A stretch of 64,000 bases of DNA, from NCBI RefSeq assembly GCF_009931435.1, contig NZ_CP043414.1, one strand, 5' to 3'. Made by a program: the position numbers. This document shows, piece by piece, positions 29,006 to 32,000 of this stretch (position 1 is its first letter; every line of letters begins with the position of its first letter). Source of the stretch: Escherichia coli (GTDB lineage: Bacteria > Pseudomonadota > Gammaproteobacteria > Enterobacterales > Enterobacteriaceae).

Positions 29006-32000
29006 TAATCGCCAATTTGCTGAAGCTTTGTGAAAAAGCCCGCGCAAGCGGGTTTTTTTATGCCTGCTGCTTTTGTGATGCGTGAGAAAACACACTGCCG
29101 GTTGTCAGATAGTCAAAAGTTGCAGGTGCTTGCAGACATGCCGTTACACTCTCTGGACTCTTCGTGGCTTAAAAAGCGCAGAACCATCGGCTGATACATT
29201 CTGAATAAGAATATCTACTCAATCTCCAGACTCCCCTACATAGAATGTGGAGATCGTGATACACATTGAGGTCTTAAACTTAAGATCACTCTATTTTTGA
29301 ATTAAATTCCTATACTCTTTAACCATCCATAAATATCACTTTATTAAATCTAATAAATTATTAACCACAATCAATACAGGTTAAATACTTATTTATAATG
29401 TACTTATTAAAAACTAATGAGCGATTTTTGATAGTAATCACATATACTTTAAAATAAATTAATAAAAAAACTCATCAAATTCAAGGACTGATAATGAAAG
29501 ATGGTATATATACTTTGCCACATTATCTTTATAAATCAAATATAGCAGATAATGAAACAATAAAGGAAACAAGAAAAGACAATTCATTAAAAATATTATG
29601 CGAGTATAAAACAGAGTTAATTATTTTATTTGATGATTTTTTTAGAAGCCAACAGTTACCTAAAATATCTCCAGCACTTCATTTTTTATTTCAACAGACT
29701 AATTTGATAGATGCGCATTTTTATAGATGTAAAGTCCAAGAACACACAATCCAACTTTCTTTTTTAAAAGACAAAAACATCACATTACTTAGATTGGATG
29801 TTTTTGATGACTTCACAAGTGAATATATTACTGAAGATATTAAGATATCAGAAGATTGCCATGTCAAATTCCTTAAATTTTTAAAGACAAACTTCGATCA
29901 GGAAATATACGATCAGTTATATACTCCTGAAATATTTTATGAAGCCTGCAAAAAAGTTCAGTCATTTTATGATCAACAGGATACCTTGCTAAACAGAAAA
30001 TACAGAGAAATAGACAAGAAAAAAGGTTATCTTAGCAAGGAACTCAAAAAGCTAATTAAAATGAATACATACCCTGAGTTATACAATGGGCAATATCAAA
30101 AAATCCCTTACTTATCCATCGATGTTAACCAAGATATAACATGGCAGAATTTTAAAACTAGCAACACAGCATATTTACTGCTTTGTGAAAAATTATCATC
30201 TTTTAAAATTACGACTAATCAATTAATACAAAAAACAGCTTGCTGCACAACTGAAAAAACGACCACCAATAAATTTAATGTTGTCTTTTCTTACGACGGG
30301 TATTATATAAAGGAATTTATACTTTTATTACCCTATAATAAATCCATGGAGATTTATGAACTTAACAAGCAAAAAATCCAGTACTTGACTGCTCCAAATA
30401 TTAACATACATAAAATATTGCTATCAAACTTAACGATAGAAAAGAGCAACCTGACATATGGTTATTATTCCACTTGTATATTATCAAATATATCATGCTT
30501 TGAAAGTGACTTATCAAACACAACCTTTTTCAATGGAGAAATAAATAATCTTTTCTTAAAAAAATGTAATATATTTGGAGTATTCTTCATTAAAACAAAA
30601 ATAAAAAACCTTCTCTGTGAAGATATTATGCCTGTTCGATGGACCACTCAACTTGTCAATAAGTACTTAGGTAACATATATACAGGAGTATTCAAAACAC
30701 TGGGAAGTATTGATGACAAAGCGTCTCGTTTCGAAATTTTGATTCCATTGGTTCAAACATTAGTTCGCGACAATGTAACGCTAAATAATGATGTGTATCA
30801 AGAATTGAGTAAGTATATGCACGATTACGACAAAACATCTCCGGAAATGAGTAAATACCTTCAGTGCATCAATGAAAGTATGTTCCTTATGACAAACATC
30901 CCTCATCAGGATCCCCCCCCAAAGAAAGATGTTATTCAGAATAAAATTACATCTGATGTATATTAATTCACTGCAGAGAAATAAAAAAACCTGAAACATG
31001 CACTCAAATATTCTACTCTTCACTCTAATGAGTGAACCCCAGAACTTTTATAAAGAAGCGAGCAACGAAGAATATTAAACTTTCAACATTTCATCAACAT
31101 CACATCAAAAATTTAAAAACTTAAACATTAATATAAATAGTAACAACCTGATCACATAATCAGGTTTGAAAATGAGCAACCTTCCATACTAGTCAATTAA
31201 GGATGATTTATGAAAAAGTATATTATTCCGTTCGTGGCGACAACGTTGATATTCAGCGTAACAACCTTCGCCAAGGATGTCGATCAAGGAACACTAACCG
31301 TTAGAGGAGAAGTTGTTGATACAACGTGTGACTTTGTTAATGGTGATTCAATAACCGATATTGTTGTCGAAGATGTTGTAACCAGTGCAATGAATCAACT
31401 TATTAATAATGAAATCTATACTTTAAAAACCGGTTCAACCGCTCATGACTTAGAAATTCAGTGTGATGGCAATACAGCAACAAATATCGAAGTATTAGCC
31501 TCAGAGTTTGATGCTAATAACTTTACGTTGAATAAAGGAACTGCTGAAAACGTTGGCTTTGCCATTTTCCTCGGTGATGGAAATATGAGAAGAATGTTAC
31601 CAGGTGTAAAAACACCGCTGAAAGATAATGGTTCTGGACAATATTTTCTTAATTTAAATGCACAATATGAGCGTACAAGTACCGATCCTGTAACAAAAGG
31701 CTCCGTGGAGTCAACCGTGACGATTAAAATCAGTGCAGATTAAAATTTTTATGCCGGTAGCTCTGCTACCGGTATTATTTACGGAGTGATTACATGAGAA
31801 TTATAACAGCATTGCTGATGTCATTTTTTATTTTACCTGTTCATGCGGGTGTGGTCATCTATGGTACGCGTATTATCTATCCAGAAAAAAACAGAGAAGT
31901 TCTCGTACAGTTAATGAATCAAAGCAAAAATGCCTCTTTGATTCAGGCATGGATCGATGATGGAAACACAACTATCGCGCCAGAAAAAATTCAGGTCCCA

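Follow-up and report, generated by a model that had tools for sequence, protein, structure and literature searches.

A rare espX1 allele of Escherichia coli with a pentapeptide-type module and a poly-C tail apparently derived by stop-codon loss

Pentapeptide proteins such as Qnr and MfpA are dimeric DNA mimics that act on gyrase, and they consist almost wholly of a beta-helix of 8-10 coils. A beta-helix also forms part of two proven effectors, SopA of Salmonella and NleL/EspX7 of enterohaemorrhagic Escherichia coli (EHEC), in which it is followed by ~410 residues of HECT-like ligase; translocation of EspX7/NleL has been proven (PMC3013003). EspX1, which carries the same family name as the latter, is absent from the table of Sakai effectors of Ogura et al. 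(2007), in which EspX2 and EspX7 are present (PMC2323221), and no EspX1 translocation experiment was found in the literature, where knowledge of which EspX proteins were tested rests on Ogura et al. (2007) and Lin et al. (2010); EspX1 otherwise appears in gene lists and in surveys of the VFDB type. Here, espX1 is considered in a 64,000-nucleotide stretch of the E. coli contig NZ_CP043414.1 (hereafter the window), where a 490-codon open reading frame (ORF) lies between rpsT and nhaR. The best overall explanation of this ORF, with a probability of roughly 0.8, is that it is an intact, rare espX1 allele containing a pentapeptide module and ending in a stop-loss tail with a slipping C run. What the window holds is a rare allelic form of a gene already on record; what is new are the stop-loss origin proposed for the tail and its C tract, the natural polymorphism of that tract (C7, C8 and C9), and a quantified mismatch between the effector label of the gene and the distribution of type III secretion systems (T3SSs).

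The espX1 locus and its rare allele

The gene at the same position in O157:H7 is annotated espX1 (WP_000129338.1, 473 aa), and BLASTP aligns the window protein with it at 71% identity without a single gap over all 473 residues (674 bits). In the window the gene order is ileS-ribF-yaaY (minus strand), rpsT, the ORF, a chaperone-usher fimbrial operon, and nhaR-nhaA (minus strand), and the order of rpsT, gene, fimbrial operon and nhaR is common to the window, its relatives and O157. An earlier sequence-only reading of this DNA had found the ORF consistent with the EspX family at the rpsT-nhaR locus of EHEC, and both position and identity bear this out. In addition to locus and neighbours, O157 EspX1 and the window protein share the same beta-helix segment and C-terminal bundle, and their genes are similarly low in GC (32% and 29%, respectively). 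The O157 protein differs in that it lacks a 17-residue C-terminal extension and the C8 tract, a TAA standing there instead.

The ORF itself, as entered in a mechanical ORF list, opens with ATG and closes with TAA, and an AAGGA Shine-Dalgarno sequence at 29483-29487 is spaced 6 nt from its start. GC content is 0.27-0.34 over positions 29000-31500 and rises to 0.51-0.58 in ileS and ribF next to it, so that the 490-aa frame in AT-rich DNA noted earlier is present as described. Arithmetic at the base composition of the ORF gives stops at ~8% of random codons, and 490 open codons therefore cannot be attributed to chance. The features of the gene and its upstream region are as follows.

29034..29068, plus strand: rpsT intrinsic terminator, visible in the sequence as a GC-rich hairpin with a T run after it and also returned as a terminator-like site in a scan
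29195..29493, plus strand: AT-rich intergenic region upstream of the ORF, with a promoter candidate and the AAGGA Shine-Dalgarno sequence
29494..30966, plus strand: espX1, rare-lineage allele, 490 codons and TAA, 71% gapless identity to WP_000129338.1
29494..30393, plus strand: N-terminal ~300 residues, fold not assigned
30394..30633, plus strand: pentapeptide-type repeat segment, residues 301-380, 15-16 pentads in ~4 coils, from periodicity, the match to EfsQnr and AlphaFold2 (AF2)
30646..30894, plus strand: predicted C-terminal four-helix bundle, residues ~385-467, from a cropped AF2 model
30913..30920, plus strand: C8 homopolymer encoding PPP, exactly at the position of the canonical espX1 TAA
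30913..30963, plus strand: lineage-specific 17-codon tail (PPPKKDVIQNKITSDVY), from DNA alignment to O157; predicted local distance difference test (pLDDT) below 50

As the rpsT terminator closes the core DNA, the ORF needs a promoter of its own. A sigma-70-like candidate, TTGATA-16-TAAAAT, is present at 29428-29455 (10/12 match); promoter-like matches do not exceed those in shuffled sequence (9 found, 11.4 expected). Identity to O157 drops from about 0.95-1.0 to 0.88 within 29195..29493, and Rfam returned no RNA family in 29000-31300.

How rare this form of the gene is was assessed with a 2-kb query against 5,426 complete E. coli genomes. Of these, 3,608 keep 80% or more of the query, nearly always at 82-84% nucleotide identity; eight genomes carry the rare allele at 99% identity or more, and none is identical to the window. 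Divergence from O157 (~17.5% of nucleotides) is centred on the gene and both intergenic flanks: identity is 77-88% over 29250-31250, as compared with 96-100% in core genes and 86-98% in the fimbrial genes. The host appears to belong to a deep, rarely sampled lineage, since ileS of the window has a match of at least 99% identity in only 6 genomes and stands at 95.8-97.6% in all others. The exact 490-aa protein is already public (P0055; e.g., EGB60349.1 and BDI34611.1) and was seen in 79 contigs, and two sister alleles were seen in 229 and 11 contigs. EGB60349.1 may come from strain M863, which is documented as Escherichia clade I (PMC4182557), and AEXD01 may be STEC_7v, of the same clade. The window thus exemplifies a second deep allele class of espX1, one which the annotation pipeline of NCBI leaves without the EspX1 name.

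Several further observations concern the way in which the gene is recorded and lost. The cluster at 90% identity that holds the window protein is represented by a 361-aa sequence (P0057), and one member of this length, 361 aa, bears the name 'energy-coupling factor transporter ATP-binding protein EcfA2'; the grouping looks like a clustering artefact, and as a result the full-length 490-aa form is missing from the homologue search results. Genomes of the K-12 type align only to the first ~73 bases of the 2-kb query, the island being missing, and in BL21 espX1 is interrupted by IS1A, so laboratory lineages have more than once lost the island or had it disrupted. In Shigella sonnei and S. boydii the EspX1 proteins are shortened to 373 and 419 aa (AFDB50 A0A0H7U3H2 and A0A9Q5U0X2), with ~79% identity to the C-terminal half of the window protein, which suggests that the gene decays in T3SS-positive Shigella.

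Repeat module, predicted fold and C-terminal tail

The periodicity that had been taken for pentapeptide-like is genuine, though local, covering ~80 of the 490 residues: 15 consecutive pentads with an in-register hydrophobic residue span residues ~305-375, a number reached in none of 5,000 shuffles (mean 6.4, maximum 14). The sole significant sequence match outside EspX1 was to the pentapeptide protein EfsQnr (2w7z in the PDB; E=4e-4, residues 292-378). An exhaustive phmmer search over 1.84 billion representatives returned only the EspX1 cluster and its fragments, and a word-indexed search likewise gave no relative beyond that cluster; two apparent homologues, P0034 and P0053, were discarded as low-complexity or marginal.

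Comparison with the EspX family, which the sequence-only reading had proposed as a check, gave a divided answer. EspX1 is matched clearly, as set out above, and EspX4 (ECs_5021, yjbI locus) is not (BLASTP E=0.078; hhalign E=0.15), although the profile-profile alignment with EspX4 is colinear. EspX4 and the other chromosomal EspX paralogues share with the window protein a family name, pentapeptide-type repeats and a location in AT-rich genes of the E. coli chromosome. EspX4 differs, however, in possessing clear Pfam domains, the SopA-like central domain (3e-50) and Pentapeptide_4 (1e-9), which served as a positive control and both of which are lacking in the window protein; specifically, Pfam detects no SopA-like central domain (PF13981) in it. 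Homology to the SopA central domain by way of EspX4 is, at an hhalign E of 0.15, not claimed. Since EspX4 has no significant similarity to the window protein and carries a SopA domain of its own, 'EspX' is a repeat-based label, with EspX1 as its outlier.

The fold was read from an AF2 model cropped to residues 281-490 (pLDDT 77; predicted template modelling (TM) score 0.73). In this model the beta-solenoid segment has a pLDDT of 82-90, the four-helix bundle (helices at crop residues 105-124, 129-145, 152-162 and 170-187) one of 83-89, and the tail one below 50. Nearly all of the top 50 PDB matches returned by Foldseek are pentapeptide quadrilateral beta-helices, and SopA is matched across nearly the whole query (probability 0.99-1.0, query TM score (TMq) 0.40-0.42), with further matches to NleL, the SV2 luminal domain, Rfr, MfpA, Qnr and AlbG. 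The top match by E-value, HalA (9nyi), was disregarded at a TMq of 0.20 and a root-mean-square deviation (rmsd) of 15 Å. In AFDB50, EspX1 proteins rank first (TM ~0.8, the truncated Shigella copies included), followed by E. coli proteins named 'type III effector/pentapeptide' (E about 1e-5, identity unconfirmed) and then by generic pentapeptide proteins. Together, these matches suggest that the repeat segment folds as a quadrilateral, right-handed beta-helix.

The predicted fold and the five-residue register are those of EfsQnr (2w7z), MfpA, QnrB1, AlbG and Rfr, but where such proteins are nearly all helix the window protein would contain a 4-coil module within a larger protein. Among solved structures, SopA and NleL/EspX7 fit the modelled C-terminal half best, and they are also the best PDB matches of the full-length model. 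The likeness has clear limits: the repeat region of NleL spans ~200 residues, as compared with ~4 coils over ~80 residues here, and the N-terminal part of SopA and NleL is unrelated to the N-terminal 300 residues of the window protein. Moreover, neither HECT-like catalytic lobes nor an active-site cysteine (Cys753 in NleL) is found in the window protein, and as it ends ~110 residues after the beta-helix, it cannot be a HECT-like ligase of the NleL/SopA kind. The gene would accordingly encode a protein of ~56 kDa laid out as an N-terminal ~300 residues of unassigned fold, in which any secretion signal would sit, a right-handed beta-helix of the pentapeptide type with ~4 coils, and a C-terminal bundle of four helices, resembling the beta-helix and following helices of SopA/NleL without the ubiquitin-ligase lobes; such a protein most likely serves as a binding or scaffold module rather than as an enzyme.

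Beyond the bundle lies the C8 tract. The run at 30913-30920, which had been flagged near the 3' end of the gene, was read there and is followed by 14 sense codons and TAA. It is the sole C run of seven or more in the window. In an ORF with 16% C, about 0.0006 runs of C8 or longer are expected, and C7 arose in only 77 of 20,000 shuffles. Alignment with O157 places the tract exactly over the end of the canonical gene: canonical espX1 reads CAT CAA GAT TAA AAC ACC CCA AAA AAG (GAT TAA AACACCCC) and the window reads CAT CAG GAT CCC CCC CCA AAG AAA GAT, and the DNA 3' of the tract can be aligned to O157 as far as a TATTAA present in both, at which the window ORF ends. EspX1 ends at D473 in O157 and at H471 in E. 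albertii, so the 17-residue tail is derived. From this alignment the tail appears to have been recruited from the former 3' untranslated region (UTR) by loss of the stop codon plus A-to-C changes, the latter having also created the homopolymer. In mechanistic terms, the ancestral stop would have been lost in this lineage as A-to-C changes produced C8, and translation would now run 17 codons into the former 3' UTR, a clean, small example of stop-codon loss recruiting UTR sequence into a coding sequence.

The proposal that the C-terminus varies between isolates also proved correct, with the change limited to the tail after residue ~475. Simulated tracts of C6, C7, C8, C9 and C10 yield products of 482, 499, 490, 483 and 500 aa, respectively, all identical up to residue ~475. 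Among the window and eight complete genomes, C8 is present in seven, C9 in one (2017-02-2CC, 483 aa) and a tract interrupted by a C-to-T change, encoding PLP, in one (RMDEC465). C7 products were predicted on three allele backgrounds, two of which have exact matches in a collection of 15 billion proteins, and C7 is present at the DNA level in three independent Sequence Read Archive samples on two backgrounds (DRR704754, SRR28778367 and SRR12406318); C9 was confirmed in AP027764. A second supposed C9 variant, P0059 (483 aa), was rejected as an N-terminally shortened gene call with a normal tail. Slipped alleles make up ~2% of contigs (6-8, as compared with about 320 with C8), and the comparison of isolates that had been suggested thus finds C7, C8, in most cases, and C9. 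The run would slip at an ordinary mutational frequency to C7 (499 aa) or C9 (483 aa), exchanging a short tail that is predicted to be disordered and is probably neutral, and leaving the conserved 473-residue body untouched.

Descent, secretion and competing explanations

E. albertii carries a homologue of 471 aa with 65% identity, whose immediate neighbours are rpsT and nhaR, the fimbrial operon being absent. Nei-Gojobori estimates of nonsynonymous (dN) and synonymous (dS) divergence were obtained for the three lineages.

Window - O157: espX1 dS 0.41, dN/dS 0.39; ileS dS 0.14; ribF dS 0.10
Window - E. albertii: espX1 dS 0.69, dN/dS 0.29; ileS dS 0.29; ribF dS 0.35
O157 - E. albertii: espX1 dS 0.63, dN/dS 0.29; ileS dS 0.31; ribF dS 0.38

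A dN/dS of 0.29-0.39 across three Escherichia lineages shows that espX1 is maintained by selection. By segment, dN/dS is 0.51 for residues 1-291, 0.18 for residues 292-380 and 0.28 for residues 381-473; purifying selection acts across the gene and is strongest in the repeat segment. The topology ((window, O157), albertii) is that of the species tree. In every pair, espX1 has about 2-3 times the dS of ileS. With this topology and a proportionally raised dS, vertical descent from an Escherichia ancestor combined with fast evolution would be a sufficient explanation of the divergence. A distant species as the source of the allele was set aside, as the trio rooted with E. albertii keeps the species-tree topology and proportional dS.

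Several observations weigh against the reading of the ORF as an intact rare espX1 allele with a pentapeptide module and a slipping tail. Firstly, the split of espX1 within E. coli lies at 0.62 of the distance to the outgroup, as compared with 0.28-0.47 for core genes, and so deep a split relative to E. albertii leaves room for an old imported allele. Secondly, the NCBI pipeline (PGAP) gives the rare allele other names: relatives at 99% identity or more are in no case called EspX1, their names being 'hypothetical protein', 'pentapeptide repeat-containing protein' or 'type III effector'. The absence of the name is a matter of a naming threshold, not of missing orthology. Thirdly, AF2 models the whole protein poorly (the mean pLDDT is 50, and most of residues 1-290 fall under 50), leaving the N-terminal 60% of the protein structurally uninterpreted, and the fold matches to SopA are modest in TM (0.4) and high in rmsd. 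Domain searches give no significant Pfam match (best, Pentapeptide_4 at an i-Evalue of 0.09) and an NCBIfam Qnr score of 13.3 bits against a cutoff of 240. Finally, some of the C7 and C9 calls may be assembly errors, yet C7 occurs in the three independent short-read samples on two backgrounds mentioned above.

The competing explanation that survives best, though it remains doubtful, is that EspX1 is a genuine T3SS substrate, exported through the E. coli T3SS known as ETT2, or through the locus of enterocyte effacement (LEE) if present, with a beta-helix that binds a host target as in SopA or PipB2 and a C tract that varies its tails for contact with the host. In favour of this explanation, the predicted fold is nearest to the beta-helix part of SopA and NleL/EspX7, both of them proven effectors (PMC3013003), and the gene shares with many effector genes a high AT content and a location on an island. 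The gene is kept under a dN/dS of 0.29 in E. albertii, a species with the LEE. T3SS genes are absent from the window, and the strain of the window is not in the complete-genome set; the markers escN (LEE) and eivA (ETT2) were scored in the eight closest complete genomes, all of which carry the rare allele, and in the set at large, using chimeric queries that joined the rare allele to a marker and counting places per record. The T3SS search that had been suggested divides accordingly: eivA, the only ETT2 gene scored, is present in 8/8 of the closest genomes and LEE escN in 0/8, with the 666 records that hold both espX1 and escN as a control.

In the complete genomes overall, escN is present in 697, eivA in about 980 and espX1 in about 3,650, the latter two totals being derived from the places-per-record counts. 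EspX1 is encoded in ~96% of escN-positive records (about 666/697) and in ~99% of eivA-positive records (about 977/981), figures that speak for an effector and that may simply reflect phylogroup structure. Against them, at least about 2,000 of the espX1 carriers (at least 55%) have neither escN nor eivA, and the distribution of espX1 does not follow that of T3SSs as marked by these two genes. The absence of LEE from the closest genomes, the description of ETT2 as widely degraded (PMC8565820), the absence of EspX1 from the Sakai table and of any translocation experiment found, and the lack of a detectable sequence relation to EspX4 point the same way. S. sonnei and S. boydii have an active T3SS, and their copies are truncated. 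The earlier designation of the ORF as a candidate type III effector therefore stands as regards EspX1 identity and locus and gains no support as regards the effector property: the effector status of EspX1 is unproven, its label is inherited from EspX naming, and its distribution gives that label no support. The significance of this result is mainly corrective, as genome surveys of uropathogenic, extended-spectrum beta-lactamase-producing and environmental E. coli regularly count espX1 as a 'type III effector virulence gene'; no new biological question is opened by it.

Since nearly all eivA-positive genomes carry espX1 and the eight rare-allele genomes are all eivA-positive and LEE-negative, it may be asked whether EspX1, in all its alleles, is perhaps not a LEE effector, and is instead a genus-wide protein kept for a T3SS-independent role or as a substrate of ETT2, a system supposed to be cryptic. 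This is offered tentatively, and is as doubtful as the effector reading itself; were it true, the poly-C tract would give three alternative C-terminal tails on a constant protein.

It is improbable that the ORF is a silenced remnant, that is, a horizontally acquired gene repressed by H-NS, without function and drifting towards a pseudogene like its fimbrial neighbours. Such a fate would fit a GC content of 29%, frameshifts in the neighbouring chaperone and usher genes, the loss of the island in K-12 and the IS1 interruption in BL21, the truncated Shigella copies, a dN/dS of about 0.38-0.39 that is high beside the 0.01-0.03 of core genes, and a delta-z0022-z0025 mutant without a motility phenotype (PMC9387321). 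The ORF is, however, intact in 9/9 rare-allele sequences, its 473-codon body being equally intact in thousands of canonical-allele genomes and in E. albertii, in DNA where stops would make up ~8% of random codons. The gene has stayed intact beside the decayed operon, it persists in E. albertii with no operon beside it, and dN/dS is clearly below 1 in all three pairs, reaching its lowest value (0.18) in the beta-helix. An intact ORF beside a frameshifted operon, together with purifying selection, speaks against a dead remnant and also against a function that depends on the fimbrial operon.

The latter point bears on an explanation that is very improbable, namely that EspX1 is a partner of the adjacent chaperone-usher operon, for example a regulator or accessory factor of O-island 1 (OI-1) with no secretion system involved. 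The same-orientation adjacency of gene and operon is conserved throughout E. coli, and a regulator is indeed among the products of OI-1, namely the motility repressor FmrA (z0021; PMC9387321, PMC10877973). Yet E. albertii has the gene without the operon, the ORF outlasts the frameshifted chaperone and usher of the window lineage, a gap of 243 bp separates it from the subunit gene, it has promoter-like and Shine-Dalgarno signals of its own, and neither Pfam nor NCBIfam finds a DNA-binding or fimbrial domain in the window protein.

Just as little credence is given to the C8 run as a true contingency locus with programmed high-frequency phase variation: like the contingency loci of Neisseria, Haemophilus and Campylobacter it is an intragenic poly-C tract with natural length polymorphism (C7, C8 and C9, with C7 on two backgrounds), far longer than composition predicts, but those loci switch on and off, whereas this tract lies 14 codons from the stop, no frame yields a truncated or null protein, the tail, predicted to be disordered, is lacking in canonical and E. 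albertii EspX1, slipped alleles are scarce (~2%), and one isolate lost the tract by a C-to-T interruption with nothing else changed. Because every tract length keeps the conserved 473-residue body, slippage exchanges the lineage-specific tail and never switches the protein off; a homopolymer can thus be polymorphic in nature without being a phase-variation switch. A reading of the ORF as part of a defence system was dropped, as PADLOC gave nothing.

Neighbouring genes and other features of the window

The espX1 locus corresponds to OI-1 (z0020-z0025), described as a putative fimbrial island (PMC9387321), of which FmrA is the sole characterised product (PMC9387321, PMC10877973). It lies in the nhaAR neighbourhood, in which Lescat et al. 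(2014) saw a mosaic of low GC built from five modules, one of them fimbrial and another termed 'type 3 secretion' (PMC4182557). The operon is located as follows.

31210..35005, plus strand: OI-1 chaperone-usher fimbrial operon, decayed

Its subunit gene is intact (177 aa), the chaperone gene is split by a frameshift (31794-32111 and 32066-32476), and the usher gene is fragmented and, near 33935, lacks ~894 bp that O157 has. An intact ORF represents the last gene in the window (34046-35005, 319 aa), which is frameshifted in the annotation of O157 and relatives; in EDL933 this region comprises z0020 and z0021 (FmrA) (PMC9387321).

On the far side of nhaA, an intact 415-aa ORF (37426-38676, minus strand) lies between nhaA and a sulfatase gene and has a weak match to an IS1-transposase N-terminal domain (E=8e-4). 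The corresponding region of NZ_CM148325 is annotated 'transposase, frameshifted', and in E. albertii a 415-aa ORF without a Pfam match occupies the same place (L011 9939-11186). At 38799-40906 (minus strand), a gene of the sulfatase family (496 aa) precedes a shortened ORF of 196 aa that covers only positions 63-254 of the 254-residue PRK11528 and is annotated in a relative as OmpK/Tsx-like; this region represents the 'sulfatase module' of the nhaAR neighbourhood (PMC4182557).

Elsewhere in the window, the junction of kefF (~14202) and carB (from ~14570) at 14203-14569 lacks the ~13-kb yaaU-fixABCX-caiTABCDE-caiF block that is present in the closest annotated genome. The block is replaced by ~0.37 kb containing a small gene for a YgdI/YgdR-family lipoprotein (about 14213-14437, minus strand), and the junction occurs in only 2 of the 5,426 complete genomes, 2020CK-00188 (98.5%) and GF4-3 (94.7%). 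In the rihC-ispH interval, a GC dip of 0.45-0.47 coincides with a gene for a 401-aa XAC2610-related protein (21334-22542, minus strand; NF047539, E=1.5e-25), which we take to be an accessory insertion absent from the K-12 gene order. The sole G run of eight or more in the window (10305-10312), which encodes W-G-G, falls within apaH, whose ORF is intact (9560-10408, 282 aa). Rfam matches at the gathering score comprise the sok antitoxin of hokC/mokC (41536-41688), the Thr operon leader (56927-57046), tpke11 (43072-43149), ES003 (18998-19050) and ES036 (51603-51645).

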